From NCBI GenBank assembly GCA_018780035.1, contig JADMKE010000014.1, positions 137,271 through 173,657 of the forward strand: DNA of 36,387 bases, read 5' to 3'. Made by a program: the position numbers and the translations under genes. The stretch's first letter is position 1, and each line of letters begins with the position of its first letter. Below, one piece after another: positions 4,328 through 36,387 of the stretch. Under the pieces are notes generated by a model. That model searched no databases, was not told the DNA's origin, and saw only the letters and a program-made list of their open reading frames with translations. The DNA comes from Candidatus Sericytochromatia bacterium. GTDB taxonomy: Bacteria > Cyanobacteriota > Sericytochromatia > UBA7694.

Positions 4328-7300
4328 ATGGGTATTCAGTTGAATGGTTCGTACTCCAATGTCGGCAAAGACACGTTACAAACACTGCACAAGGTGGCAC
4401 AAAGTGGCGCAAAAATTGAAGCAGCAGAAGTCGATGAAGTCGAAAAAGCGGCCCGTGCCGATGGGGATTTCAGTGATGGCGAAAAAGCCTTGATTGCAAA
4501 ACTCAGAGAAGGAACCCGCGATAAAAAAGAGATTCAGGATTTTCAATTGGCGGCCTTTGACCCCACGGCCCAAGAGCTGGAATTTGGCAGTTTTAACCTG
4601 GAGATCAATGCCAATCAGGGCCAAAGCAAACCCGTCTATCTTGAACGCCTCGGAGAAGCCATTCGGAGCAATGATTCCGACAGTGATGACACCATTCGCA
4701 AGCTGCTGTCGGATCAAAAGCGTTTTGAACTGGCAGCCAAATTGGCACCGGGTCGGCTGCTCGAAGCTGTGGATATCCTCAAAAGTGGCAATTATTCAGA
4801 CGAAGACCGGGCTAGCGTGGTGAAAATTTTTGCAGCTGTGCCCCCTGCCCAACAGGCAGAGATTCTGAAAAAACTCAACGCAGATGGGGATGATAATACC
4901 CTGCGCGATCTGAGTGAAAACAGCACAGCTTTGGCAGCTGTGGCCCAAGGGGATCCTGCGGTCTTGGACAAAGTCATTGAGACCTTAAAAAGTGGCGTTT
5001 ATTCAAGCGAAGATGCAGCAGCAGTGGCCCGCGTGGTCGCGGCCCAATCAGCTCCTCAGCAGCAGAGTTTTGTCAAAGCAGAAATTCAGCGCAATGACAG
5101 TGACAGTGACGATACCCTGGCCGCGTTGAGTGAAAAGACCCGTGTGCTTGAAAATTTGGATACTCCCACCAAATTGCAAAGCTTACATGTGCTCTATGAT
5201 GGCAATGTCTCTGCAGAAGACAAAGTGGGCATGCGCCACATTTTGGAAGAAATCGGCTTTTTGACGATCTCTGACGACAAAGCCAAAGAAGTCGCCAAAG
5301 CCTTGGAAGGCCTCAGCGATGCACAAAAAACCAAATTGGCCGGTCAATTGGATCAACTCAGTCCAATTCAAAAAGCAGATCTGCTCAAGGTCTTGAATCA
5401 GCTCAATCCTGAACAAATCCAAAACAGCTTAAAGGCCCTGACCGCTCCCAGCAACAAAGACGAATTGGGGAGTTTGGTCAAGCTCTTAAGTGCGAGCCAC
5501 AATAAACCCGAAGAACTTGCTCGCTTTTCTGCTGGTTTTGCGGCCTTGACTGAGCCTGAACAGCAAAGTGCCGCGAAACTCATTCACAGTTTAATGCAAG
5601 CCCCTCCCCCCGCCAGCTTGAGAACAGATATTGCCACAGAATTGAGCAAATTGGGGGCCAGCAGTCCCCGCGTAGGCCAAGTCTTAAATAGTTTGGGGCT
5701 TTACTTACCAGCCACTGAGCCCAAAGCCCCCGGCACAGAAGATGCCTCTTCGCGCTTAAAAACCGTCTATATGGGGCAATACAGAACCGATGACCCCAAT
5801 GCCGACTATACCCGAGACATGTTAAAAGTCGCCCAAACTGAGAATTTTAAAGTGGCAATCCAAGGCTCTTTAACCCATTTTCCCACCCCAATGCCTGCCG
5901 CCACTGTCACGGCCAAAGAAACAGATCTGGCCGCCAAAGGGGAGTTTTCCCGCGCCAATCTGGATGCCACAATCAAAACCCTGGAAGACATGGGCGTGCT
6001 CAGTGGCGCCATGCCTGCCGCAGACAAAGACAAAGAAGCCAAGACCTATTTGGCCAAGGTGGCCCTCTTCAAAGATACCCTGATTGCCGATCTGCAAAGC
6101 AAAGAAGGCATGAGCAAAGCTGATGCCGAGGCCTTGGTCAACAATCCCGATCGGGTCGATATCCGCCTGACGCCTCACGCTGGGTATATCTGGGCCGAAG
6201 ACAATAAATGGGTCAAGGTAGATGGCACCGTAACGACCACCCCGGCGCTGCGGCGTATTCCGGGGATGGCCCCCCCCGCTTTGGACAAAGCTCAGGCCTT
6301 TACCGATGCCAATCTGGGCCAAGCCCCAGGCACCCCCGGTTCGGAGGGCCACCACACAGCCGCCTTGCCCAGCAATGATCCCTACAATTTATTGCCAGAC
6401 AACCCTGCCACCTCATGGCGGGGGGCGGTGACAATACGCGACCAGGAGATCAATGCCAATGAATTGGGACAATCTGTTAATGGCCGCCCTGCGGATGTAA
6501 CGCGCACCTACAACGAAGGTGGCAATATGCTTACCGGGACCAAGCCCAATGGCGAAAGTTATGCGGTGGTGGGCAGAGATGGCTTGTTATTGAGCGCTTT
6601 TCATTTGGAGGACACCTCAGACCCGGTCTTTGATGCTGCCAAGGTCGATGCCAGAATCAAAGCCATGGGCCTCGATCAGCCTTTTGCCTCCTTGCCCAAG
6701 GCCACCCAAGCCGAAATCGACGTCACAATCAAGCGCTTAAAAGCAGCCGGAGAAACCTTTCCCGATCTGGCTGCAGAAAGAAAACGGGCCACTGAATTTT
6801 TGGCCAAAATTGATCTAACAAAAGATCTCTTTGCCCAAGATATTGGGGTCGATCGCAAGAATTTGACATTTGTCGCCCAACCAGACTTTCATATAGATAT
6901 GCACATGCGCCCCCTGGGACCGGGGCAAATGATGATCAACGATTTTGACGCCAATCTGAAGCTCTTAACCGAGGCAAAAAAGAAAGCCACCCCTGGCTCC
7001 TGGGAAGACAAAGAACTGGATAGCATGATAGATCATGCAAAAAAAATGAAAGCGGTGCTGGGCCCGGTGATGGATCAGATTGCCCAAGAGTTAAAAGACA
7101 GTGGCCTCGAAGTCATTCGGGCCCCAGGCGTGATGGAAGCCCAAATGGCCCAAGCGCCGGTCGAAAAAGATTCGGATGTGGGTACCTTTTTGGGCTTGGC
7201 AGCAGACAAAACCTATGACCAAGCCACGCTCAAAGCAGAATTGATGGCCAAAGGAATCACCGATCCCGTTTTGGCAGAGGTTCTGACCCAAACCTTTAAG

Positions 7301-7543
7301 CGTCACGTCAATTTTATGAATGCCGTTCCTGGCACCAGCAATGGCAGCAACAAACAGTTTTATATGACCAACGCCACCAGTTTGCCTTCCCTGACAGCGG
7401 CTTATGAGGACTATCTCAAACAGACACACGGTATAGAAACCGTGTATTGGCTCGGCGGAGATGGTGGTGGCCCCAGCAGCAGAAGCGCTTCGGAACAATC
7501 ATTGGATGCCAGTGGCGGACTGGACTGCCGGGAGAACCATTGA
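4328..7543 (+). CDS. Large (1071 aa) multidomain protein. It has an N-terminal acidic helical-repeat region and a C-terminal domain (about 370 aa) of the guanidino-group-modifying-enzyme fold (arginine deiminase / DDAH / peptidylarginine deiminase / amidinotransferase-like). It is a putative arginine- or guanidino-modifying effector.
   Basis: ATG 4328 has GGAGG 9 nt upstream. The N-terminal 600 aa contain recurring motifs: 'R(S/N)NDSDSDDT' appears twice and 'LKSG.YS.ED...V' appears three times. No signal peptide is present. The C-terminal domain carries the ordered hallmark motifs of the fold: 'TYNEGGNMLTG' (EGG[D/N], nt about 6514-6525), 'DFHIDMHM' (H-x-D, nt 6890-6898) and the C-terminal 'SGGLDCRENH' (GGxxC catalytic Cys, nt 7524-7526). 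The stop TGA overlaps the next ATG (TGATG). Confidence 0.8.
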   Translation: MGIQLNGSYSNVGKDTLQTLHKVAQSGAKIEAAEVDEVEKAARADGDFSDGEKALIAKLREGTRDKKEIQDFQLAAFDPTAQELEFGSFNLEINANQGQSKPVYLERLGEAIRSNDSDSDDTIRKLLSDQKRFELAAKLAPGRLLEAVDILKSGNYSDEDRASVVKIFAAVPPAQQAEILKKLNADGDDNTLRDLSENSTALAAVAQGDPAVLDKVIETLKSGVYSSEDAAAVARVVAAQSAPQQQSFVKAEIQRNDSDSDDTLAALSEKTRVLENLDTPTKLQSLHVLYDGNVSAEDKVGMRHILEEIGFLTISDDKAKEVAKALEGLSDAQKTKLAGQLDQLSPIQKADLLKVLNQLNPEQIQNSLKALTAPSNKDELGSLVKLLSASHNKPEELARFSAGFAALTEPEQQSAAKLIHSLMQAPPPASLRTDIATELSKLGASSPRVGQVLNSLGLYLPATEPKAPGTEDASSRLKTVYMGQYRTDDPNADYTRDMLKVAQTENFKVAIQGSLTHFPTPMPAATVTAKETDLAAKGEFSRANLDATIKTLEDMGVLSGAMPAADKDKEAKTYLAKVALFKDTLIADLQSKEGMSKADAEALVNNPDRVDIRLTPHAGYIWAEDNKWVKVDGTVTTTPALRRIPGMAPPALDKAQAFTDANLGQAPGTPGSEGHHTAALPSNDPYNLLPDNPATSWRGAVTIRDQEINANELGQSVNGRPADVTRTYNEGGNMLTGTKPNGESYAVVGRDGLLLSAFHLEDTSDPVFDAAKVDARIKAMGLDQPFASLPKATQAEIDVTIKRLKAAGETFPDLAAERKRATEFLAKIDLTKDLFAQDIGVDRKNLTFVAQPDFHIDMHMRPLGPGQMMINDFDANLKLLTEAKKKATPGSWEDKELDSMIDHAKKMKAVLGPVMDQIAQELKDSGLEVIRAPGVMEAQMAQAPVEKDSDVGTFLGLAADKTYDQATLKAELMAKGITDPVLAEVLTQTFKRHVNFMNAVPGTSNGSNKQFYMTNATSLPSLTAAYEDYLKQTHGIETVYWLGGDGGGPSSRSASEQSLDASGGLDCRENH

Positions 7544-8128: not shown

Positions 8129-10060
8129 CTACCAGGTTCTGAGGAAGCGCTTGTTGAGTTCCAGTTTGCTGAACTTGAGCAGAATCGGGCGGCCATGGGG
8201 ACAGGTATAGGGATTGCGGGTTTTGGACCAATTTTGGACTATCTTTTGCATCTGTTCGAGAGTTAAAGGGTCGCCAGCCCGAATCGCACTGTGACAGGCA
8301 ATGGTCTTGCAGAGCCGGTTAAACGACTCCAGATAGACTTTGGCCACGCCACTTTCGCGCAACTCTAACAAAACCTCTTTAAAGGTTGCTTCGGTCTCAG
8401 CAAAACGCAGACAGTGGGGAATGGCACGAATCGCAATACTGCCAGGCCCCTCCTCTTCCCATTCAAAGCCTGCACGTTCAAAGGCTTTGCGATTTTCTTC
8501 GAGCAGGCCGCGCTCAATTTCATCGATCTCAATCACGACCGAGAGCAGCAGCGGCTGGCTGAGAATTTTGGCCTGTTCAAGCAATTCTTCGTAGAGATAG
8601 CGCTCTTCGGCCACGTGTTGATCGAGCAGGGCCAGCCCATTGCCATAATGGGCCACAATATACGTATAATCACAGGCCTGGCCCAGGGCGCTGACGGGCT
8701 CCAGCGGCGCACCAGCTTCAACCGGCGCTGGCGGAGGGGTGATTTTGAGATCGGGCAATTCCAGCACTTGCGGGGGACGTGTTGGCAACTCCGGAGCCCA
8801 ACTGGGGCCTGCAGGCTGGACGGGCACTGGTGCAGGAGCAAGGGGAGAGGCGTAAACTGGCGCGGCAGGTTCCTGAACGGAAGGCTGAACAACAGGAAGC
8901 GGCATGGCAAAAGGAGGAATTTCATCGTCATCATCAAAAGCATTGCCAGCAGAGGCTTTGACAGGATTCATAGCACTGGCTGCGGTGGACACAGTTGGCA
9001 CAGTTAACGGGGTGGGCTCAGCCGCTCCAGAATCCACCACCGGCGGCCCCAAACTGGCGCTGCGCTCAAAATTGTAACGTGAAAGGGAGTTTTGAATGCC
9101 CTCGCGGGTCAATTGAAAAATCTGGCTGAAATGTTTGAACTTGACCTCTTTTTTATTGGGGTGCACGTTCACATCGACATTGCCAGCCGGCAGTTCCAAT
9201 TGCAGAATCGCCACGGGGAAATTCTTTTTGGGTACCAGATCGGCGTAGAGATCATCGACAAGCTTGGTAATGCCCGGCACCTTGACCCAGCGCCGATTGA
9301 CAAACAAAAATTGGTAATTGCGGTCGCGGCGCACACAATCGGGATAACTCAGAACCCCTTGGACCAAACCGGCTGGGGTTTCGTGGCTGACGGTATAGAG
9401 CGAATCAGCCAGGTCTTTGCCCAAAATTTGCCTCACCACCGAACTCAGGCTCTGCTGGCCGCTGGTCTGAATCACTGTTTTGCCTTTTTTGACAAATTTA
9501 AAGCCAATCTCGGGCAAGCCCAGGGCAAAAGCCTGCATCAATTGCTGGATATACCCCAATTCGGTGGTCTCAGAGCTGAGAAATTTGAGCCGGGCAGGGG
9601 TATTGTAAAAGAGATCGCGAATCGTCAGACTCGTTCCCACTGGCCCGCCAGCGGAGCTGTTTTCGATGATTTCACCGCCCTGGATCACCAGGCGTTTGGC
9701 AATGTCTTGATCGGCGGTACGGGTTAAGATTTCAACCCGCGCCACCGAGGCAATACTGGGCAAAGCCTCACCGCGAAAGCCCATGGTATTGATGCTCCAA
9801 ATATCTTCAAAGCTCTGCAATTTGCTCGTGGCAAAACGCTGAAAGGCCAATCCGACACTTTCTGCAGGAATGCCAAAGCCATTGTCGACGACCCGCAAAA
9901 AGCGTCCGCCCTGATCCACTTCGACCTGAATAAAGGTCGCACCGGCATCAAGGGCATTTTCAACCAATTCTTTGATCACCGATGCGGGCCGCTCAACCAC
10001 TTCACCCGCGGCAATTTGGTTGGCAACCTGGGCATCGAGCAGCTGAATCGGCTTCATCAT
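8129..10060 (-). CDS. mutL: DNA mismatch repair protein MutL.
   Basis: The N-terminal GHKL ATPase motifs read 'QVANQIAAGEVVERPASVIKELVENALDAG' and 'VVDNGFGI'. A Pro/Ala-rich linker is followed by the C-terminal dimerisation/endonuclease region 'ACHSAIRAGDPL'. The ATG overlaps the htrA stop (ATGA). Confidence 0.95.
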   Translation of the reverse strand: MMKPIQLLDAQVANQIAAGEVVERPASVIKELVENALDAGATFIQVEVDQGGRFLRVVDNGFGIPAESVGLAFQRFATSKLQSFEDIWSINTMGFRGEALPSIASVARVEILTRTADQDIAKRLVIQGGEIIENSSAGGPVGTSLTIRDLFYNTPARLKFLSSETTELGYIQQLMQAFALGLPEIGFKFVKKGKTVIQTSGQQSLSSVVRQILGKDLADSLYTVSHETPAGLVQGVLSYPDCVRRDRNYQFLFVNRRWVKVPGITKLVDDLYADLVPKKNFPVAILQLELPAGNVDVNVHPNKKEVKFKHFSQIFQLTREGIQNSLSRYNFERSASLGPPVVDSGAAEPTPLTVPTVSTAASAMNPVKASAGNAFDDDDEIPPFAMPLPVVQPSVQEPAAPVYASPLAPAPVPVQPAGPSWAPELPTRPPQVLELPDLKITPPPAPVEAGAPLEPVSALGQACDYTYIVAHYGNGLALLDQHVAEERYLYEELLEQAKILSQPLLLSVVIEIDEIERGLLEENRKAFERAGFEWEEEGPGSIAIRAIPHCLRFAETEATFKEVLLELRESGVAKVYLESFNRLCKTIACHSAIRAGDPLTLEQMQKIVQNWSKTRNPYTCPHGRPILLKFSKLELNKRFLRTW

Positions 10061-26946: not shown

Positions 26947-27077
26947 CGTCATTTCCCCACTCACAGTCCCTGGTGCAGCAAGCGCTCTTGCAGGTGTCTA
27001 GAGCATTTCAGTTTAAACCACCCAGGGCGATTTTGAATACCCTGGGCGGGCTCTGGCATTGTTTCAGAGATAGCCCA

Positions 27078-30000
27078 TCAAGGAGAAATTCTGCGAACAC
27101 GGTGGTTAAGCCGGTCGGCCACATAGACCTGACCTGTACTATCTACGCTCACACCGGTCGGATTGTTCAGCTGAGCCAAACCTGCAATGCTGTTGTCTCC
27201 GGCCAGAGCAGCGGCCCCCGTTCCAGCAAGGGTATAAATAAAATTGGCAGTCATGGCTTGGCCATAATAATTCCCTGATGTGATCGGGATAAACCGAATC
27301 TTGTGATTGCCAGTATCGGCAATAAACACCCCTGTGGCATTGGCAAAGACCCCGCGTGGGCTGCTCAGACGGGCTGAGGTCGCGCTACCGCCATCCCCTG
27401 TTGCACCGGCATTGCCATCACCAGCGATGACATACAGGGTATCTGCGGCCATGACTTGGCCAAAATAGTTACCCGCGGTGTCGGGCCTGAAGAAGATGCG
27501 GTGGCTGCCTGCATCGGCAATGTACACATGCCCGCCGTTGGTGGCGTTGGCCACCCGATGGATACCACTCGGACTGTTCAAAGCGCTGCCACCAAAGCCA
27601 CCGCCTGCAACAAAATAGATATTGCTGCCAGCGACCGTTCTGCCAAAGCGGGTGGCGGGCCCGGTCAGGAGATTGGAGAAATAGGCCACGTTATTGCCCG
27701 TATCGGCAATCAAGGTGCCATTGCCCTGATCTGCAACCCCTTCGGGACTGGCCATATTGGCCGCGAAGCGGGCAGTACCATCGGTCGCAGCACCATTGGT
27801 GCCACTGCCATTGACAGTATAAATACTGCCGGCAGTCATGGCGATATTGTAAAAAGTGGCAGTGGTATTGCTGAGGGTGCGTACCCGCTGATTGGCGGTA
27901 TCTGCAAAGGTCAGCAAAATATTGCCAATCAGGGCAATCCCGTGGGGATCGTTGACCTGAGCGGAGGTGCCCGCACCATTATCACCGGCAAATGTGCCGG
28001 TGCCATTGCCGGCCAGGGTATAGATATTGCCTGCGGTCATGCCAGCCACCCCAAAAAAGTCACCATTGCTGGCAGGCACAAAGCGAATGCGGTGATTGCT
28101 GCTATCGGCAATGGCCACATGATTGGAGGCATTGATAGAGACGCCCCAGGGGGCATTTAATTGTGCGCTTGCAGCAGCGCCATTGTCACCACTGAAGCCC
28201 TGGGTCGAACCGGCAAAGGTGGTGATTCTGGGCATGACTGTAAAATTGCTTCCGGCACTGGTTTGGGTCCCCACCTGAACAGTGGTGGCATAAGGCGCGG
28301 CATTGGATGTCAGAGAAGGTACTGTAACAGTGAGAGCCGTGGCTGTCGCCCCTGTGACTGTGGCATTTGTGCCGCCAAAACTGACGGTATTGCTGCCCAG
28401 TGTGGTGTGAAAGCCTGAACCATTGATCGTGATACTGGCTCCCGCCACATCACTGCTGGTACCGGCAGAAGTGAAACCGGTAATCGCAGGTGTGACGGCA
28501 TAATTATTCGTGCCGGCATTGGTTTGCCCTGCCACCGTGACCGTGACATTCTGGCTGCCAAAGATTCCGGCAGGCACCGTCACATTGAGGCTGGTCACTG
28601 AAGCGGTATTGACCGTGGCTGTGGTTGTACCGAAACGCACGGTATTGTTGCCAGGGGTCGTGTCGAAGCCGGTGCCGGTGATGGTCAGGGCACTGCCAAT
28701 CGTGCCATTGCTGGCACTCAGGTTGGTAATTGTGGGCCCTGCGGCACTCACTGTGTAGTTATTGGTGCCTGCATTGGTCTGTGCGCCGACCTGAACCGTC
28801 ACATTCTGAACGCCGACATTGTTGGGCACCGTGACCGTCAATTGGGTTGTGGTGGCAGCCGTGACTGTGGCAGCAGTGCCACCAAAGCTCACGGTATTGC
28901 TGCCGAGTGTGGTATGAAAACCACTGCCGTTAATAGTCATGCTACTGCCAACATTGCCTGCGATGGGGGTGAGATTGGTAATCGCTGGCGTAACCGCATA
29001 ATTATTCGTGCCGACATTGGTTTGCCCTGCCACCGTGACCGTGACATTCTGGCTGCCAAAGATTCCGGCAGGCACCGTCACGTTAAGGCTGGTGGCTGAA
29101 GCGGTATTGACTGTGGCCGTGGTCGTGCCAAAACGCACGGTGTTGTTGCCAGGGGTGGCATCAAAGCCCGTGCCGGTGATTGTCAGGGTACTGCCAATCG
29201 CGCCATTGCTGGCACTCAGGTTGGTAATCGTGGGGGTCACATTAAAATTATCTGCGGCGGTATTGGCGCTGGTCTGGTTGCCGACCTGCACAGAAATATC
29301 CTGGGCCCCGGTGATGCCCACTGGCACCGTGACCGTGAGTTGGGTATTGCTGGCTGCTGTAACTGTGGCAATGGTGGTGCCAAAGCGCACGGTATTGCCT
29401 CCGGTTGTGGCGTGAAAATTTGTGCCGTTGAGGGTAACGCTGCTGCCAATCGGGCCGGCACTCGCACCTAAACTGGTAATACTGGGGGTCGCTGGGGTGG
29501 CTGTTACTGTCACAGCATGGGTTCCACCTTCTGTGCTCGTCACCGGATTGGTGGCCACAGCATAGGTATACGTGGTTCCGGGGGTACCGGCACTGGAAGC
29601 CAAAAGCCGCAAGCCAGAACCAGGAGTGGATTTGACAAAAGCAGTCACGCCATTGCCTGCTGCCGTAACCACGGGTGTGGCACTGTCGGTCAATTGCAAA
29701 CGGGCTTGGTCTGCCCCCACTAAGCCCGTCACCGTGGCATTGACAGTGCTGCCGTTGAGGCGGTAATTGGCTGGAGTCAAAGCCCCTGGATTCTGGCTCA
29801 AAAGATCATTGGCCAATTGGGTCAGGTTGATCAGGGTCGGATGGGTGGTATAGGTATAGTTGGGATAGGTGCCTGCCACACCGGTGATCTGATTGATCAG
29901 GGTATTTAAATCCGCCAGCACGATTGCTTTGGCACGGGTGAGATTGGTGGCCATCAGGCTTTTCATCACCTTGGCCGCAGGAGTGCTCAAAAAACTGACC

Positions 30001-30476
30001 TCCACATTGGCATTGTTGATTCCGGGATGGCTGATCACACTGGCCAGTTCGGCCTGGGGAATGAGCGCCACACCGTCATTGACACTGAGCTCCAGCAATA
30101 ACAATTGATCGGGGATCAGATTGTTAAAGGTCAGGCTCAGATTGCCGCCAACAGGGTAATTGACTTGGCCCTGGGCATCAGAGCCATTGGGCCGGGTAAC
30201 AAGATTAAAGCTGTCGGTGACTAAGGCTTTGACTTTGGTGGCAGAGGCAAAGTCCAGGGCCTGGGTTTTAAACGCTGGCAAAGCAGGCAAATCCAGGTGT
30301 AAGGTCAGTTGATTCCCGTGCCATTCCATCCGAGCAGGCCTGAGTAAAACAGGTGAAACTACGGGAGATTGCTGTAAAGGAGAAGCAGGATTTGGCATAG
30401 ATGTCAGCTCAGGTGAACTTTGGCAGGCCGCCAACAGAGAGAGAAGCACAAAGAGCGAAAGAGATGAATAGCGCAT
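27078..30476 (-). CDS. Giant surface lipoprotein (1132 aa) with a lipobox signal, at least 7 IPT/TIG domains and a C-terminal six-bladed NHL beta-propeller.
   Basis: The signal is 'MRYSSLSLFVLLSLLAAC'. TIG units recur as 'TITNLSASNG.IGS.LTITGTGFD.TPGNNTVRFG...LNVTVPAGIFGSQNVTV'. NHL blades read 'AIADSSNHRIRFV', 'FADTANQRVRTL', 'VYIADAGSHRIFF', 'VFIADTGNHKIRFI' and 'VYVADRLNHRVRRI'. The ATG shares one nucleotide with the upstream gene's stop (TAATG). Confidence 0.9.
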   Translation of the reverse strand: MRYSSLSLFVLLSLLAACQSSPELTSMPNPASPLQQSPVVSPVLLRPARMEWHGNQLTLHLDLPALPAFKTQALDFASATKVKALVTDSFNLVTRPNGSDAQGQVNYPVGGNLSLTFNNLIPDQLLLLELSVNDGVALIPQAELASVISHPGINNANVEVSFLSTPAAKVMKSLMATNLTRAKAIVLADLNTLINQITGVAGTYPNYTYTTHPTLINLTQLANDLLSQNPGALTPANYRLNGSTVNATVTGLVGADQARLQLTDSATPVVTAAGNGVTAFVKSTPGSGLRLLASSAGTPGTTYTYAVATNPVTSTEGGTHAVTVTATPATPSITSLGASAGPIGSSVTLNGTNFHATTGGNTVRFGTTIATVTAASNTQLTVTVPVGITGAQDISVQVGNQTSANTAADNFNVTPTITNLSASNGAIGSTLTITGTGFDATPGNNTVRFGTTTATVNTASATSLNVTVPAGIFGSQNVTVTVAGQTNVGTNNYAVTPAITNLTPIAGNVGSSMTINGSGFHTTLGSNTVSFGGTAATVTAATTTQLTVTVPNNVGVQNVTVQVGAQTNAGTNNYTVSAAGPTITNLSASNGTIGSALTITGTGFDTTPGNNTVRFGTTTATVNTASVTSLNVTVPAGIFGSQNVTVTVAGQTNAGTNNYAVTPAITGFTSAGTSSDVAGASITINGSGFHTTLGSNTVSFGGTNATVTGATATALTVTVPSLTSNAAPYATTVQVGTQTSAGSNFTVMPRITTFAGSTQGFSGDNGAAASAQLNAPWGVSINASNHVAIADSSNHRIRFVPASNGDFFGVAGMTAGNIYTLAGNGTGTFAGDNGAGTSAQVNDPHGIALIGNILLTFADTANQRVRTLSNTTATFYNIAMTAGSIYTVNGSGTNGAATDGTARFAANMASPEGVADQGNGTLIADTGNNVAYFSNLLTGPATRFGRTVAGSNIYFVAGGGFGGSALNSPSGIHRVANATNGGHVYIADAGSHRIFFRPDTAGNYFGQVMAADTLYVIAGDGNAGATGDGGSATSARLSSPRGVFANATGVFIADTGNHKIRFIPITSGNYYGQAMTANFIYTLAGTGAAALAGDNSIAGLAQLNNPTGVSVDSTGQVYVADRLNHRVRRISP
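28244..29240. repeat. Two near-identical tandem copies of a 498-bp unit (166 aa, two TIG domains) inside the 1132-aa gene.
   Basis: The same sequence appears at about 28499-28616 and about 28997-29114, with only about 6 mismatches over the roughly 118 nt compared by eye. Reverse-strand pseudo-ORFs 28510-28758 and 29008-29415 translate almost identically. Confidence 0.8.
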
Positions 30477-32809
30477 TAGTTAAAGCCTCCATTGGCGTTG
30501 AGGGTGATTGAAGGCAAAATCGCCGCCACAGCGTCACTGCTGAGCACATCCACGATCACGGTGATGTTGATATCCCCCGGCAAATTGAGAGCGGTGGGCA
30601 CAGGCACGATCAACTGGTTGCCATTTACAGCAGCAGCCGGGACTTCAATCGTCCCAAAGCGCACGCGGTTATTGCCCGCTAAAAGGGTGTCAAAACCCGT
30701 TCCTGTCAGGGTCAGGGAGCTTCCTCTGACGAGACGAGCCTTGCCAGAGACAATGCCATGAGGTGTGGCCAGAGCCGTAATCTGGGGTTTCACTTTAAAG
30801 GACAAAGCATTGCTGTTGGCACCATTGACCTTGACAGAGACATTCTGGGCCCCAAAGATGCCGGCGGGTACCGTCACGGTGAGACTGTTGGCTGTCGCGG
30901 CGGTCACTGTGGCCGAGACATTGCCAAAATTCACCAGATTTTCAGCTGCAACTGCACTGAAATTGGAACCAGTCAACGTGATCGTGCTGCCAATCGGAGC
31001 TATAGTAGAGGCAAGGGTCGAAAGGGTGGGTTGATTGAGGGCCGAAGCCCCGCCGCCTCCGCTCCCCCCGCCGCTGCTTCCCCCACCGGAAGACTGACGC
31101 CAAGTAGACGTCGTGGCTTTGCCTGTCACAGTATCATTGCCGCGCTTGACATCCACACGGAATTCATAGCGGCTATCAGGACTGAGGCCACTTGCAAGAT
31201 ATTTGAGTTTTTCCCCGGCTTGGCCATTGATTTTGGCAAGCAGGCGATTGCTTTCAAAAATTTCATAAGTGGCTGCGGCAGCAATCCCCGTAAATTCAAG
31301 TTGAATTTGGGTATATTCATTGTTTGGGAATGGATAAGCCTTGATCTGCAGACCAGTAGCCGAAGCGCTGGGGCTCGGAGAAACCGAAGGCGTGATCTGG
31401 GGAGAGGGAGTCGGAGAAGCGGTCGGCAATGCTGTCGGTCTGGCACTAGGAGATGCTGAGGGCTGAAGGCTGGGCGCGGGTTGGGGAGTGGGAACGGTTT
31501 CCGGTAACTGGGCCTGCAAAAGTGTCAATTCACAAGGGCCCAGCGGGGGAAATGGATTGGAAAGGATGACGGTTCCTTGTGAATTGTTCAGGTTCACAAT
31601 CTCTTTTCCGGTGTTATTGAGCTGTTTATTCTGAATATTTTCACGGACCGAAGAGATGGCAATGGCCGTTTCTGCGTTTGATATTTTTGTAATTTTTGAA
31701 TCAAAAATATTTATATTTTTATTTAAATCCAACAAGATAGACTGACTATCTCCCAAAATAATTTGATTAAGCGTCTGATTGATTTTGGTAATTTCATTGC
31801 TGGTGAGACTCACCATATCCATCACACTTCCGAGAGAGGTGTCCTGGTCATTACATTGTGGCAGCGAGTTGCTCAGATTGATGATTGAGCCCAAATTTTC
31901 AGCGACTGGCTTGAGAGGGCTGGGCTTTGGCGAAGAAAATAGCACAGAGGTGGTATTTGGGGAGGGGACTTGCTGAATCTGAAAACCCTCAGAGGGGGCA
32001 GGTGCTAAAGCCGCAATTAAGTTGGCTTGTTTGAGCTGTCGCTGAATTTCCTGGCCCATGAGTCCATTGAGATAGCGAATCTGAATCAAAGATTCCAAGC
32101 GCGCCACCAGATTGGGCATTGAGCTTAGAAAGGTATTTTGAATATTCTCTAAGCTTTCTTTTTCCAATCCCACGCGACCATCTTGCTGGGAGCCGCGTAT
32201 AATATCTGCCAAGACTGTTGAGCGGGGCGAAACTTCCACAGTCAATGAGACAGGCTTATTTGGCACATCTACGAGGGCACGGGCAATTAATTGACTTTGT
32301 TGATTGAGGGCCAAGACCTCATATCTGAACCCCCCTGGTAGGGCATTGATCTGAAAATGGCCCGTGGCATCTGTTTGCGTGCTGGCCAATTCTTGACCAT
32401 CGGGTAAATAGATTTTGACAGTTTGATAAGCCAGTCCCTCCAAAACAGCTTTATTGCCTTGAGGCATCAATAAACGCCCTTTCAGAGCCAAGGGCGATGC
32501 TTGCTTGAGCTGAGCGAGAACGGCTTGTTTCAGCTGGGCTTGTGCTCGCGCTTGCAATGCTGGTTCGACAGTTACCACTGAGGGGAGTTCTATTTCTTCA
32601 GCTGTCTGGAAATAGCTGTTTAAGGCCTGTCTTAAGCGTTCCCTTTCACTGTTTTTTTCACTCTGGCTTAAAGGAGGGAGAACCGCAGGTGTGCTTAAAA
32701 GCAAATTGCTGCCCAAAGGCCCAGTCTCTTGGCAGCCCAGTAAAAGGCTGAAACAGAGACAGGTAAAGGTCAGTGATTTTTTAAATCGAAAATGAGATGG
32801 ACGTATCAT
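30476..32809 (-). CDS. Surface lipoprotein (about 777 aa). Domains in order: CarboxypepD_reg-like beta-sandwich, low-complexity N/I/K-rich region, Pro/Ser/Thr/Ala linker, Fn3-like domain, Gly/Ser linker and two C-terminal IPT/TIG domains.
   Basis: ATG 32809 (MIRPSHFRFKKSLTFTCLCFSLLLGC, lipobox) has GAGGAG 10 nt upstream; the track start is TTG 32827. CarboxypepD_reg-like motif is 'KIYLPDGQELASTQTDATGHFQINALPGGFRYEVLA'. The Fn3-like segment is 'YEIFESNRLLAKINGQAGEKLKYLASGLSPDSRYEFRVDV'. The TIG motif is 'TIAPIGSTITLTGSNFSAVAAENLVNFGNVSATVTAATANSLTVTVPAGIFGAQNVSV'. It is a paralogue of the N-terminal region of the 1157-aa protein. Confidence 0.85.
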   Translation of the reverse strand: MIRPSHFRFKKSLTFTCLCFSLLLGCQETGPLGSNLLLSTPAVLPPLSQSEKNSERERLRQALNSYFQTAEEIELPSVVTVEPALQARAQAQLKQAVLAQLKQASPLALKGRLLMPQGNKAVLEGLAYQTVKIYLPDGQELASTQTDATGHFQINALPGGFRYEVLALNQQSQLIARALVDVPNKPVSLTVEVSPRSTVLADIIRGSQQDGRVGLEKESLENIQNTFLSSMPNLVARLESLIQIRYLNGLMGQEIQRQLKQANLIAALAPAPSEGFQIQQVPSPNTTSVLFSSPKPSPLKPVAENLGSIINLSNSLPQCNDQDTSLGSVMDMVSLTSNEITKINQTLNQIILGDSQSILLDLNKNINIFDSKITKISNAETAIAISSVRENIQNKQLNNTGKEIVNLNNSQGTVILSNPFPPLGPCELTLLQAQLPETVPTPQPAPSLQPSASPSARPTALPTASPTPSPQITPSVSPSPSASATGLQIKAYPFPNNEYTQIQLEFTGIAAAATYEIFESNRLLAKINGQAGEKLKYLASGLSPDSRYEFRVDVKRGNDTVTGKATTSTWRQSSGGGSSGGGSGGGGASALNQPTLSTLASTIAPIGSTITLTGSNFSAVAAENLVNFGNVSATVTAATANSLTVTVPAGIFGAQNVSVKVNGANSNALSFKVKPQITALATPHGIVSGKARLVRGSSLTLTGTGFDTLLAGNNRVRFGTIEVPAAAVNGNQLIVPVPTALNLPGDINITVIVDVLSSDAVAAILPSITLNANGGFN

Positions 32810-32832
32810 ATAGCTGGGGCTCCTCAAAATAT

Positions 32833-35800
32833 TTACCGCAATGTGACAGTGCGAGGCTTAGAAATTGCACCGTCTTTGGTTTTTACCCATAAATAGAGCT
32901 TGGTCGGTCTTTTGGGCAATTTTTCACTGACAGAATCTTTGATGAGTTTGGCAGACATTTCAACCAAACCGTTATATTTGTATAAAGACAGGGATTTCGC
33001 AACCGAGCTGAGCTCAAGGTTTATAACCAATTTCTCTCCCTTGGGCCCATTTTTACCTGGTTCATAGGGAGAAATAAAGATTTGATTGTCTTTAATACTC
33101 TCTGAAACATGGTACGTCTTTAAAGTGAATAAAGTATCAAAAGAGATCTGTTTATTGTCGATCACCTTATCCAGAATGCTGGCAATCTCAACAGAGGTGT
33201 TGATCACTGTCCCTGAATATTCAAGTTGAACAGGGTGAGTGCCATACAACCCCATTGGTACCTTCACATCTATTTCCGAAGCAGATATGACACTTGGGGT
33301 TACCTTTTCAGCAGAGCCTACTTTAACAGAGGTATTACCAAGCGCCTGCCCCTTGATTCTGACTCTGTTGTCCCCGTATTCATTTTCTTGAGAAGTAAAG
33401 ATCGGGCTGTCGGTATTCAAGTTTAATTCAAACGTGAAGGGATTGGGCAGTTCGAATTTGGCTGGGTCTTTTTCTGGATTGGTTTTATTGGCCACGACAA
33501 ATTTGGTTGAATATTTGGTTGGGTTAATATAATCCTGATACGGACAGATAATTTTTTTCGCTTGTGCATCTTCTTGGCAAGCCCGATAAAAACTGACGCC
33601 ATTTTGATTGGCAATTTGAGCATAAAAGGACACATAGGGCGAATCAAAAGGGGGCAAATTAGCGTAATTGCCAATTTCGATATGGCTTGGTTTGGGCTCA
33701 ATATTTGAGATGGTCGGAACCAGAAAATCAAGTTTTACCCCATTGGAAACCAAATTCCCAAATTCAACTTTGACTTCTTGATTACCAGCCAACTTAGGCG
33801 CTCCTGCCTCTATGAGGGTTTCTTGCGGAGTTAAGGTCACTTTGGTCACATCAACATCTTGCCCGCCAATCTTGAGCTTGACTTGATCCGAGTTCAGGGC
33901 AGAAGTCGAAATCTTTAAGCGTTCTCCCTGTCTCACCTGGGTGATGTTTTGGCCGGCTGCATTTTGGATTTTATTGAGCGTGATTTCTTTGGTTGTTGCT
34001 CCCAGGGTGATCGGTTTGGCCTCTGAGATGATATTGTGATTGGTGACAGTCACCAATGTCTTTCCCTCTATGCCCTGAGGAACAATGACCGTCAAAGCCA
34101 CTTCGCGCGCACCCACTTGATTCGTACATCTGGCGCAATAAGGGCTGGGGATATTTACAAAGTTGAATTTAGAAGCAATTTCTTTAACAGACTCAACAAC
34201 AGCTATTTTATCGCCAAATTTGACAATATTCTGATCTTTTCTAGGATCAAAAACTCCTTGTATTTCTATTTTTTGAAATTCAGCTGCATTTTCAGGTAAA
34301 ATACCTGAAATTTTGGGGGTAATGAACAAAGGTACTTTATGAACATAGGTATTGGCGTATCCCAGATCAGACAAGAATAACTCGAGCGTTTGCTCACCCA
34401 ATAGCTGTTTGGGAAAGTTATCGATGGTCAGCAATGTGCGCTCTTGGGAGATCGATCTGCGAATAACATTGACCTTCACTATCTCTTTTTTATCGGTCAC
34501 CAAGTGGTTTACGACAAAGCTCTTATCTGAAAGATTGATTGCCAATTCCAATGTAGTGCCATTTTGAACCTGTTTGGAAAGAATCTCGGTGGTGGGTTCA
34601 ACAAAAAGAAAGCGATGTTTGGTCTTTAAATTATCCAGATAGAGCTTATAAACCCCGATATATTCTTTGGGCAGTGTTAATTTTAACTCACGGTCTGAAA
34701 CAAACTCTGGGATAAGCTCTTTTTGGAATGCTTGGGTTTGCAAATGATTCGTGAGAATAATTTTGTGATTTTTACCAAAGAGGCCATTGAGGGTGATTGT
34801 CCCACCTCTTTTGGTGTAAGTGGAATTTGTCTCCCCCATAATACCTGCCAGGGGCGTAAATTGGACGGCATTGGACGATTGCTGATTGACCATCAGCTTG
34901 ATATCGAGTGGATTGACAGAGCTGAGCATGGGAACTTCGACTTGCAGAGAAATAATCTGTTTGCCTTTGTCATCCAACTCAAAAGACATTCCGATATTTT
35001 TGGCCAAGACGTCTCCAAACATCACTTTGTTTTCAGCAAGGTTCTTAGAAAAATCCGTTGTTTTGAGGGTGACCGTATCCCCCACAGCAGCGGTGGTTTT
35101 ATCCAGGGTAATATTTGCCAGGGGAGGCAGGGGAGTCGACATCACAATGGGGAGAGGTGGAGTGCTTGTACTGCAGTTTCTGTTTCCCACCCGACCAATA
35201 ATCCCTGTTAAATCTGATTTTAATTCCGTTGTAACTGCTTCACGCAGATCCATGGCAGTGTAAAGGGTTGAAATTTGGGTGTTTTTGTTCAGGGACGTTT
35301 GGATGGTCAACAAAGGAGAAATCAACAGATGGGGAGAGTTGATATTGTTATTCAGGCTTTCAATCGATTGAATCATTTCGGGCCCCACACCAGACAGTCC
35401 ATTTAATTGGGTTAGCAATTTAATTTGCTTTGGGGACCCCCCGTTTATCAGACCTATTTGTTGAACTTTAAAGCCCGTTTGCATTTGCCCAGAGCGCTGA
35501 GAACAGGCCTGAGAACGCTTGAATACAGATTGGGTTTGAAAATCGTTCAGTTTTGTTTGCACACCCGCTTGTATTTCGTCTTGCACCTCGCTGACCAGAT
35601 TGAGCAATGACAGTCCGGACACAAGTCGGAAGAAATGCTCTGGATTTTGTGTCAGATATTTCTCAATTTGTGCCACAGAAATCTGTTCCAGGCCTGAACG
35701 CCCATCGCGCGAAGCCAGCCAAACAGCCTCAGCAACGGCTGTCGTTTCCAAAGTGAGATTTTGTTCAATACTATCAGAGGGCGGGGTGGCAGGCAGATCG

Positions 35801-36306
35801 AGCAAAGCACTGGCCAGAGAACGGCCTGTTTCAGTGCTGGCTACCAATTCTATCCGCATACCCGCAGGAACGCCTTGCAATGTGTATTGACCTTCGCGAT
35901 TGGTTTGGGCCACACCCAGAGTACTTCCATCCGGAGCATAAACGGTAAGCGGGATTCCTGAGACGGCTGTGTCTGGGGACAGTTCAAGCCGCCCCGTTAA
36001 GGTCACCTGCCTGGCTGTTTTACGCAGTTGATTGACTTCTTGGGAGGTAAATTGCGCCAATGCTGCATGATTATTTCCAAAACTCAGGTCTGGAGCTTGG
36101 GGATCTGCCAAAAATTGGGCTATTTTAGCTTCCAGAGCAACCCGCTCCCTTTGGGCTTCTGCTTTTGTCAATTTGGCAATCACAGGCTGGGTCAAAAAAG
36201 TGCTTGTGTTTGGATTGAGGGGGGCACTGGGTTGGCAGGCGGACAGATTCCAAACCGTTGCCAAACAGATCAGCCCAAGGAGATGGGTTTGGCGAAAGTG
36301 AAACAA
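32833..36306 (-). CDS. Giant surface lipoprotein (1157 aa as called). It has an N-terminal CarboxypepD_reg-like domain followed by many Ig-like / TIG-like beta-sandwich repeats. It is the first gene of the three-lipoprotein operon.
   Basis: The signal and lipobox read 'LLGLICLATVWNLSAC'. 'LTVYAPDGSTLGVAQTNREGQYTLQGVPAGMRIELVAS' is CarboxypepD_reg-like. The N-terminal 250 aa are collinear with the 783-aa paralogue. The track start is TTG 36306 with no SD. The frame is open upstream to the window end, so the true start is uncertain. The 3' end lies 5 bp from the next gene. Confidence 0.75.
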   Translation of the reverse strand: MFHFRQTHLLGLICLATVWNLSACQPSAPLNPNTSTFLTQPVIAKLTKAEAQRERVALEAKIAQFLADPQAPDLSFGNNHAALAQFTSQEVNQLRKTARQVTLTGRLELSPDTAVSGIPLTVYAPDGSTLGVAQTNREGQYTLQGVPAGMRIELVASTETGRSLASALLDLPATPPSDSIEQNLTLETTAVAEAVWLASRDGRSGLEQISVAQIEKYLTQNPEHFFRLVSGLSLLNLVSEVQDEIQAGVQTKLNDFQTQSVFKRSQACSQRSGQMQTGFKVQQIGLINGGSPKQIKLLTQLNGLSGVGPEMIQSIESLNNNINSPHLLISPLLTIQTSLNKNTQISTLYTAMDLREAVTTELKSDLTGIIGRVGNRNCSTSTPPLPIVMSTPLPPLANITLDKTTAAVGDTVTLKTTDFSKNLAENKVMFGDVLAKNIGMSFELDDKGKQIISLQVEVPMLSSVNPLDIKLMVNQQSSNAVQFTPLAGIMGETNSTYTKRGGTITLNGLFGKNHKIILTNHLQTQAFQKELIPEFVSDRELKLTLPKEYIGVYKLYLDNLKTKHRFLFVEPTTEILSKQVQNGTTLELAINLSDKSFVVNHLVTDKKEIVKVNVIRRSISQERTLLTIDNFPKQLLGEQTLELFLSDLGYANTYVHKVPLFITPKISGILPENAAEFQKIEIQGVFDPRKDQNIVKFGDKIAVVESVKEIASKFNFVNIPSPYCARCTNQVGAREVALTVIVPQGIEGKTLVTVTNHNIISEAKPITLGATTKEITLNKIQNAAGQNITQVRQGERLKISTSALNSDQVKLKIGGQDVDVTKVTLTPQETLIEAGAPKLAGNQEVKVEFGNLVSNGVKLDFLVPTISNIEPKPSHIEIGNYANLPPFDSPYVSFYAQIANQNGVSFYRACQEDAQAKKIICPYQDYINPTKYSTKFVVANKTNPEKDPAKFELPNPFTFELNLNTDSPIFTSQENEYGDNRVRIKGQALGNTSVKVGSAEKVTPSVISASEIDVKVPMGLYGTHPVQLEYSGTVINTSVEIASILDKVIDNKQISFDTLFTLKTYHVSESIKDNQIFISPYEPGKNGPKGEKLVINLELSSVAKSLSLYKYNGLVEMSAKLIKDSVSEKLPKRPTKLYLWVKTKDGAISKPRTVTLR

Positions 36307-36387
36307 CGGTGATCTTTGCTTAAGTTCAAAACTAACTGTAGTTTCGGAGATTTTTGCATGAGCAAAGAGAAAGGGCGTATTCTGAAA

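Follow-up and report, generated by a model that had tools for sequence, protein, structure and literature searches.

The window analysed here is a 36,387-nt stretch of contig JADMKE010000014.1 from a Candidatus Sericytochromatia bacterium, and the subject is an array of large lipoprotein genes near its right end, where the G+C content (GC) shifts sharply inside single genes. Three large open reading frames (ORFs) of 1132, 783 and 1157 aa occupy positions 27078-36306 on the minus strand. A preliminary description of this DNA had read the AT-rich parts of the 783- and 1157-aa genes as exchangeable modules. The genes and parts concerned are listed below; GC1, GC2 and GC3 denote GC at the three codon positions, FYMINK is the fraction of Phe, Tyr, Met, Ile, Asn and Lys residues, and g1157 is the 1157-aa gene.

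32833-36306, minus strand: g1157, 1157-aa lipoprotein; GC 0.442; GC1/2/3 0.50/0.37/0.45
35707-36306, minus strand: g1157 residues 1-200, N-terminal module of normal GC; GC 0.52, GC3 0.47
35137-35706, minus strand: g1157 residues 201-390, predicted helical region (from alignment, composition and low-confidence AlphaFold2 (AF2) helices); GC 0.447
32836-35136, minus strand: g1157 residues 391-1157, AT-rich Ig-like body to the stop codon; GC 0.42, GC3 0.44, FYMINK 0.32
30476-32827, minus strand: 783-aa ORF; likely start at 32809, giving 777 aa, with GAGGAG about 10 nt upstream
31553-31852, minus strand: deep AT-rich dip, residues 326-425 of the 783-aa ORF; GC 0.36; GC1/2/3 0.37/0.29/0.42; FYMINK 0.39
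31328-31552, minus strand: Pro/Ala/Ser-rich linker of the 783-aa ORF; GC peak 0.61, composition-expected 0.64-0.66
30479-31177, minus strand: residues 551-783 of the 783-aa ORF, Gly-rich linker and two TIG domains; GC 0.56, GC3 0.60
27078-30476, minus strand: 1132-aa lipoprotein with five TIG repeats and an NHL beta-propeller, final gene of the array; GC 0.555

A fourth gene of the array lies upstream of the window and is seen on the contig of a 96%-identical strain (L002), where it encodes 1199 aa, and on a contig of the window's own sample (L014), where it encodes 1204 aa. The array order is 1199/1204 aa (beyond the window), 1157 aa, 777/783 aa and 1132 aa, with all genes co-directional and tightly packed. 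The stop codon of the 783-aa gene and the start codon of the 1132-aa gene overlap as TAATG (30474-30478), and a 23-nt spacer with GAGGAG separates the g1157 stop from the start of the 777-aa form (32810-32835). There are thus signs of translational coupling within the array, and the tight packing suggests that it may be transcribed as one operon.

Each product carries a predicted lipobox, identified by pattern match alone ([LVI][ASTVI][GAS]C at the end of the N-terminal signal peptide): ..WNLSAC24Q in the 1157-aa protein, ..LLLGC Q in the 783/777-aa protein, ..LLAAC17Q in the 1132-aa protein and ..GLPAC S in the 1199-aa protein. In the g1157 product the signal peptide and lipobox lead into a CarboxypepD_reg-like beta-sandwich; a helical region comes next, and a Pro-rich linker then connects to a chain of Ig-like/TIG domains. 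The 783-aa protein has a lipobox and the same N-terminal module, followed by a Pro-rich linker, an Fn3-like domain, a Gly-rich linker and two TIG domains. The dip encodes a predicted helical segment rich in Asn, Ile, Lys, Ser and Leu and flanked by two Cys residues. Matches to Pfam TIG (PF01833, cut-off 20.9 bits) reached 57.6 bits in the 783-aa, 29.1 bits in the 1157-aa and 152.7 bits in the 1132-aa protein, the last of which also matches NHL. CarboxypepD_reg (PF13620) scored 18.8 bits in g1157 and 21.3 bits in the 783-aa protein, both under the 32.3-bit gathering threshold, and AF2 placed a beta-sandwich at residues 100-192 with a predicted local distance difference test score (pLDDT) of 53-79. 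Confident AF2 beta domains in g1157 lie at residues 90-200, 395-485, 663-711 and 735-860, and the helix prediction for the N/I-rich segment is weak. Foldseek on the g1157 model returned multi-Ig-like proteins, including the PrgB Ig-like domains, InvD, FdeC, SbsC and plexin IPT. A surface-exposed or adhesin role, with the helical region as a stalk, may be proposed for these proteins.

Mean GC is 0.516 for the whole window, 0.533 for its coding sequence and 0.555 for the adjacent 1132-aa gene, rather than the 56-58% earlier taken as background. In the 783-aa gene GC falls to 0.359 at 31550-31850, to 0.308 at 31600-31800 and to 0.257 in a core at 31660-31760. The contrast at this dip is sharp because the GC peak of the Pro/Ala/Ser linker directly adjoins it. 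Positions 31851-32250 have a GC of 0.482 and lie outside the deep dip, so that the segment once drawn at 31550-32250 with 25-35% GC is really about 300 nt long, not 700. The value of about 42% assigned to 33000-35300 in g1157 was accurate (0.422), but the plateau to which it belongs extends from about 35650 to the stop codon at 32833 (GC 0.424).

To place these values we used a background of 821 coding 150-nt windows from the other 19 genes of the window, which had a mean GC of 0.535 (standard deviation 0.047) and fell below 0.42 in 0.6% of cases. By comparison, 47% of windows in the g1157 body lie below 0.42, as do 100% of those in the 783-aa gene's dip. Within about 65 kb of non-cassette DNA of this genus, low-GC (<0.45) runs did not exceed 450 nt, whereas those in the cassette genes described below reached 725-1075 nt. 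The same GC pattern was found again in the independent assemblies L001, L002 and L013/L014 and is therefore not an assembly artefact. Thus the two genes do contain strongly AT-rich segments far outside the local coding background, as the preliminary description had it, although their extents and the background needed correction. The remaining stretches of the window below 0.42 are intergenic or at gene ends, with the sole exception of the 150-nt window 6751-6900. This window, the only other purely intragenic one, sits in a 1071-aa ORF (4328-7543); neither that ORF nor a 334-aa ORF at 476-1480 has a Pfam match at E <= 1e-5.

From the protein sequence of each 50-codon window and the codon usage of the 19 background genes we derived an expected GC. 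Over 60 windows this value followed the observed GC closely (r = 0.905, R2 = 0.82). The share of the deficit attributable to composition was 80% in the dip, 69% in the body of g1157 (residues 221-1157) and 65% in that of the 1199-aa gene. The FYMINK fraction is 0.32-0.39 in the AT-rich parts vs 0.14-0.27 elsewhere. What remains is a near-constant synonymous deficit of 0.034-0.047 of total GC (a GC3 residual of about -0.10), which is equally large in the N-terminal parts of seemingly normal GC (z = -4.0 and -4.8 vs synonymous resampling). The first of these scores belongs to the g1157 N-terminal module, where composition predicts 0.56 and 0.515 was observed under resampling with background codon usage. 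Because composition explains most of the deficit and the synonymous deficit is constant, we conclude that the visible GC mosaic is a protein-composition effect.

The synonymous sites draw a different map. Throughout g1157 and over residues 1-550 of the 783-aa ORF GC3 is 0.42-0.47, as it is in most of the 1199-aa gene, whose first 200 codons stand at 0.52. The last 233 residues of the 783-aa ORF have a higher GC3 of 0.60, the 1132-aa gene has 0.59, and 21 neighbouring genes span 0.51-0.69. The true nucleotide-level boundary therefore encloses a block of about 8.7 kb (the 1199/1204-aa gene, g1157 and the first ~550 codons of the 783-aa gene) with an edge near 31180, and does not fall at the proposed module borders. 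Within this block synonymous GC is down by about 0.10-0.13, a composition atypical beside the neighbouring genes and of the kind seen in acquired islands. Two further expectations about GC held in part. The signal-peptide/CarboxypepD_reg ends are normal in total GC (0.52 in g1157), but their GC3 is low (0.38-0.54) in both genes; the C-terminal TIG domains are normal in the 783-aa gene (0.553-0.562), but in g1157 the last 270 nt have a GC of 0.40.

The most extreme synonymous AT bias of the window lies at 34132-34356 (g1157 residues 651-725), where GC3 is 0.18-0.22 and the residual -0.24 to -0.30. An Ig-like domain predicted with confidence contains this stretch, for which the strain comparison described below gave a synonymous divergence (pS) of 0.146 and a ratio of nonsynonymous to synonymous divergence (pN/pS) of 0.19.

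The 1199-, 1157- and 777-aa proteins are paralogues with a common N-terminal architecture of about 400 residues, in the order lipobox, helix, beta-sandwich, helical region, a segment of about 100 residues rich in Asn, Ile, Leu and Ser and bracketed by two Cys, and a Pro-rich linker. The 1157- and 1199-aa proteins align over nearly their full length (residues 17-1028) at 29-30% identity. The N-terminal module of the 777-aa protein resembles that of g1157 (27% identity), and its C-terminal TIG region is 45-48% identical to the TIG of the 1132-aa protein and 31% identical to that of g1157. The cluster of the 1199-aa paralogue includes MBT9548554.1, a hypothetical protein of Candidatus Sericytochromatia.

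The segment that forms the dip occupies the homologous position in all three paralogues and in a 1556-aa protein of another lineage (L008_1556). In g1157 it is the Cys-bracketed N/I/L/S-rich segment, with a local GC minimum of 0.41-0.42 at 35257-35481; the minimum is 0.36 in the 1199-aa gene (L002 7201-7500) and 0.37-0.43 at residues 451-600 of L008_1556. Since it stands at the same position in every paralogue, the dip segment is not an insert. We also considered an origin by slippage or tandem repetition and rejected it, as neither Tandem Repeats Finder nor a second repeat finder reported anything in the dip.

Selection on the AT-rich parts was assessed by comparing the window with L002, to which it is collinear over 7.1 kb. 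The AT-rich parts had a pN/pS of 0.15-0.35 (0.27 in the dip) and a pS of 0.05-0.15, like the rest of the genes, and are thus under purifying selection. Divergence is highest at the 5' end of the 1132-aa gene, where GC is normal (residues 1-100, pS 0.42, pN 0.16). Rapid diversification of the AT-rich parts, as had been suggested, is therefore not supported. Codon usage was similarly even: the rare-codon fraction is 0.08-0.11 in every part of the array genes vs 0.05 in the background, and adaptation to background codon usage is 0.60-0.66 in all parts, with a background mean of 0.69. The further proposal that rare codons in the AT-rich parts tune expression gains no specific support, since such codons are no commoner there.

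The same comparison bears on recombination. The TIG end of the 783-aa gene is near-identical between the strains, with 1 difference in 233 codons and a pS of 0.005 (residues 545-777) vs 0.075-0.094 upstream. Along the DNA, 0-1 differences per 200 nt at 30600-31400 adjoin 22-43 per 200 nt at 30000-30600, in the 5' end of the 1132-aa gene; such alternation points to a recent exchange by recombination between diverged alleles. None of the identity breaks, which lie near 31400, 30600 and 28744, falls on a GC border (31550, 31850 and about 35650).

At a larger scale, the comparison with other relatives demonstrates cassette replacement. The features involved are these:

L008 1806-9871 (also in L009): alternative cassette, same locus in a related genome
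28471-28744, minus strand: right-hand cassette breakpoint; homology to L008/L009 begins at 28744 (91.8% nt, 96.6% aa)
36330-36387, no strand assigned: end of a mobile-element-like insertion upstream of g1157, with a 15-nt terminal inverted repeat at 36336-36350

In the relative represented by L008/L009 the flanks are 90-92% identical to the window, and the histidine kinase is 89% identical. Between the abhydrolase gene and the TIG repeats, however, L008/L009 carry other genes, for LGT (prolipoprotein diacylglyceryl transferase), an 849-aa lipoprotein and the 1556-aa lipoprotein. The breakpoints of the cassette are at L002 6187 and window position 28744. The 849-aa lipoprotein gene of the alternative cassette has a low-GC body of its own (GC 0.44, GC3 0.43). 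In a more distant relative (L010) a different TIG protein adjoins the kinase. The locus is polymorphic for presence and absence between conserved flanks.

The right-hand junction falls within a gene. The 1132-aa protein is 96.6% identical to its L008 counterpart past residue 576 and unalignable before it. The L008_1556 protein has an N-terminus of the same family (25-31% identity), a middle that is 43.5% like residues 493-744 of the 783-aa protein and a last part of 557 residues 96.6% identical to the 1132-aa protein; it looks as if the family's N-terminal module, a middle part resembling the 783-aa protein's and the 1132-aa protein's TIG/NHL end had been fused. The 1132-aa gene contains five TIG repeats of about 252 nt (28318-29480). 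Two 266-nt copies, at 28471-28736 and 28969-29234, are 90% identical in DNA, which suggests that gene conversion may occur between TIG repeats; the breakpoint at 28744 is at the edge of one of them.

The insertion upstream of g1157 is bounded by perfect 15-nt inverted repeats (CTGTAGTTTCGGAGA), and its 6-bp target, which reads TTAGTT on the minus strand (36330-35), is duplicated. It sits between the 1204-aa paralogue and g1157, is also found at L014 9365-9392 and L013 13653-13680 and is missing from strain L002 (site 9990-10020). The contigs of two runs break inside it, and its repeat-like nature explains the contig break at the array. A scan of Joint Genome Institute (JGI) metagenomes for the insertion's ends gave no match.

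For programmed antigenic or phase variation through invertible elements, diversity-generating retroelements or silent cassettes the locus gave no evidence. No inverted repeats of variation systems were found, the only direct repeats are the TIG/NHL repeats within the 1132-aa gene, and the window's genes include no recombinase or reverse transcriptase domain.

Outside the array the window is ordinary chromosomal DNA, with genes for MutL, RecO, HtrA and FTCD and for two-component systems, and MutL is 93-99% identical to Candidatus Sericytochromatia/Blackallbacteria metagenome-assembled genomes. An exact database look-up of the 1157-aa protein gave no match, and the 777-aa form was matched exactly solely in the assembly identical to the window (L001). 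No Rfam families were found. Among 1.84 billion representatives, exhaustive HMMER searching returned a single homologue of the g1157 AT-rich body, the paralogue P0006. Donor searches as a whole returned strain orthologues, paralogues and weak matches to the N-terminal module only, so that searching the AT-rich segments separately, as had been proposed, pointed to no donor lineage outside this one. A further, distant family member, P0008, has 801 aa and combines the N-terminal module with Fn3, TIG and a C-terminal domain that is repeated; its contig, L012, belongs to a genome with about 43% GC. Every gene on that contig has a GC3 of 0.39-0.45, and therefore AT-richer genomes carrying the family exist.

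Taken together, the results favor an explanation in two parts, which as a whole we consider probable: the composition of the protein domains makes the GC contrast, as shown above, and the genes probably belong to an accessory block of paralogues, AT-shifted at synonymous sites, that forms a replaceable lipoprotein cassette. The Gly/Ala/Arg/Pro-rich N-terminal beta-sandwich module gives normal-looking GC, the Asn/Ile/Leu/Ser/Lys-rich and probably helical segment the deep dip, the Pro-rich linker the GC peak and the Lys/Ile/Asn/Phe-rich Ig-like domains the long low-GC body. The synonymous AT shift adds a second, smaller effect at the level of the block. The block would be accessory DNA at a cassette site with conserved flanks, a place that different lipoprotein genes occupy in related genomes, and could be exchanged by homologous recombination in the flanks and the TIG repeats. 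Most likely AT-richer relatives supplied it in the form of whole genes; the synonymous shift might alternatively come from weak codon-usage selection. The earlier idea of horizontal acquisition or exchange is thus supported at the scale of the whole cassette, which other genes replace in L008/L009, but not at the scale of modules; the low-GC3 block behaves like accessory DNA, but no donor was found.

Several points weigh against this explanation. None of the usual marks of an island was found: there is no tRNA in the window, no integrase or transposase among the Pfam matches of its genes and no flanking direct or other repeat at the borders of the block or the segments, and the only mobility-like feature is the end of the insertion inside the array, which resembles an insertion sequence or a miniature inverted-repeat transposable element. 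Word-indexed searches, exhaustive HMMER and pattern scans of GTDB genomes and JGI metagenomes found no donor of the AT-rich body outside the lineage. The background statistics come from about 27 kb of the window and about 38 kb of relatives and do not cover the whole genome. The AF2 models of both proteins are of low confidence (mean pLDDT 40 and 46) because the alignments are shallow, and their beta domains alone are usable. The paralogues are only ~29% identical yet have low GC3 in common, so that either they were imported together or AT-richness is maintained locally. Finally, in L008_1556 the drop in GC3 is limited to the N/I-rich segment (0.36-0.46 vs 0.6-0.7 on both sides), and local maintenance therefore fits better there than an origin at block level.

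Local maintenance is accordingly the main rival, which we regard as possible but unlikely. On this view selection or mutation acting on the DNA or RNA itself keeps the N/I-rich segment, and perhaps the Ig-like bodies too, AT-rich, and a foreign origin is not needed. Weak mRNA structure, slow translation between domains, binding of nucleoid proteins or context-dependent AT-biased mutation are possible causes. In four family members, 25-30% identical, a GC minimum with depressed GC3 occurs at the segment; the flanks of the segment in L008_1556 keep their higher GC3, and the residual GC3 deficit peaks at -0.20 in residues 351-400 of the 783-aa protein and at -0.24 to -0.30 in g1157 residues 651-725. 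Promoter-like matches are also mildly enriched in 27000-36387 (16 vs 9.4 +/- 2.9 expected). However, the GC3 deficit is roughly uniform in the window's genes, GC-normal parts included, and rare codons are not concentrated in the AT-rich parts. The promoter scan amounts to matching a consensus in AT-rich DNA, and terminator-like sites occur about as often as expected. As candidates, internal promoters and terminators were likewise rejected, given a mere mild excess of consensus matches in such DNA.

We judge improbable that low expression alone is responsible, that is, that these are native, weakly expressed genes whose GC3 drifts to an AT-biased mutational equilibrium, with protein composition adding the rest. 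Codon adaptation is somewhat low and rare codons are about twice as common as in the background, and the genes are lineage-restricted and have no known function. Yet GC3 passes from 0.46 to 0.60 within one gene of an apparent operon, and the coupled 1132-aa gene stands at 0.59, while expression level cannot vary within a single mRNA. This switch inside one gene makes low expression alone insufficient; in addition, the background set has no ribosomal or highly expressed genes and so provides no reference for high expression.

The original proposal, that AT-rich modules were separately acquired, are exchangeable or diversify fast, and were inserted into native genes of normal GC, now appears very improbable. 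Total GC does shift sharply inside both genes, and the locus does recombine, as seen in the identical stretch at 30600-31400 beside stretches 10-20% divergent and in the breakpoint within the 1132-aa gene. The 783-aa protein is moreover a chimera at the family level, with an N-terminus like that of g1157 and a TIG end like that of the 1132-aa protein. Nevertheless, GC3 is unchanged at the proposed borders, the AT-rich segment recurs at its homologous position in every paralogue, the bodies align throughout, divergence and pN/pS of the AT-rich parts are ordinary, the identity breaks do not match the GC borders and the segments have no flanking repeats. The idea of exchangeable modules inside genes is thus largely refuted at the scale proposed. 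A chimeric assembly of two organisms' DNA, which metagenome-type data and contigs breaking at the array might bring to mind, has a negligible chance, as independent runs contain the same junctions (L001 at 100% identity, L002 collinear over the 7.1 kb at 96%, L013/L014 upstream of the window), reading frames are intact across all GC borders and the repeat-like insertion accounts for the contig break.

A bolder extension strikes us as rather doubtful: the locus would be a dedicated site for variable surface-lipoprotein cassettes, in which whole N-terminal gene parts are swapped between lineages at the TIG repeats, and the AT-rich N/I segment would be a functional element at the nucleic-acid level. 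If this were true, swaps of N-terminal gene parts could serve escape from phages or grazers or altered attachment, and the N/I-rich segment might be, for example, a translational pause or a regulatory or silencing target kept by selection.

With domain composition and an accessory cassette as the preferred explanation, the locus represents ordinary accessory-gene biology and leaves the current understanding of genome evolution unchanged. It does call for caution, since a striking intragenic GC mosaic can be produced almost wholly by domain-specific amino-acid composition, and splitting GC3 from GC1 and GC2 shifted the real boundary from module borders to the ~8.7-kb block. The array also brings to light a lineage-restricted and so far uncharacterised family of putative surface lipoproteins in Sericytochromatia, poorly known non-photosynthetic relatives of cyanobacteria. 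The variability of the locus between close genomes could interest those who study the cell-surface biology and population genomics of this group.

Among known systems, AT-rich accessory or transferred genes and ORFans offer the first comparison; the amelioration concept of Lawrence and Ochman belongs here, as does the work of Daubin, Lerat and Perriere and of Daubin and Ochman. Like such genes, the array has lower GC3 than its neighbours and a FYMINK-rich composition, is patchy among close relatives and has homologues only in a narrow lineage. Unlike them, it comes without mobility genes, a tRNA site or a donor in the searches made; it is made up of paralogues that diverged long ago (29% identity) and not of one recent import, and its GC contrast is mostly protein composition and not a foreign signature.

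In predicted layout the array proteins resemble the Leptospira Lig lipoproteins, invasin/intimin, FdeC, PrgB and SbsC, which combine an N-terminal anchor, here a lipobox, with a chain of Ig-like/IPT domains. In contrast, they are homologous to these proteins only through the generic TIG fold, and their N-terminal module (CarboxypepD_reg-like sandwich plus helical N/I-rich segment) is lineage-specific. Similarly, the locus recalls capsule/O-antigen loci and the mosaic surface-antigen genes of transformable bacteria in having flanks of 90-92% identity around non-homologous content, a break in identity at a repeat inside a gene and alternating near-identical and divergent stretches. It differs from them in that two cassette versions are seen here, and from programmed variable loci in being without inverted repeats, a recombinase or reverse transcriptase in the window, or homopolymer switches.

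Lastly, the dip is like the Asn/Ile/Lys-rich low-complexity regions of AT-rich DNA in encoding an N/I/K/S/L-rich stretch with a core of 26% GC. Unlike those regions, it lies in a host of 52% GC, is non-repetitive and conserved in position, and has a pN/pS of 0.27. A literature search brought up no work on this particular locus or lineage feature. Both GC variation driven by composition and accessory genes rich in AT are of known kinds, and it is the protein family itself that is undescribed.

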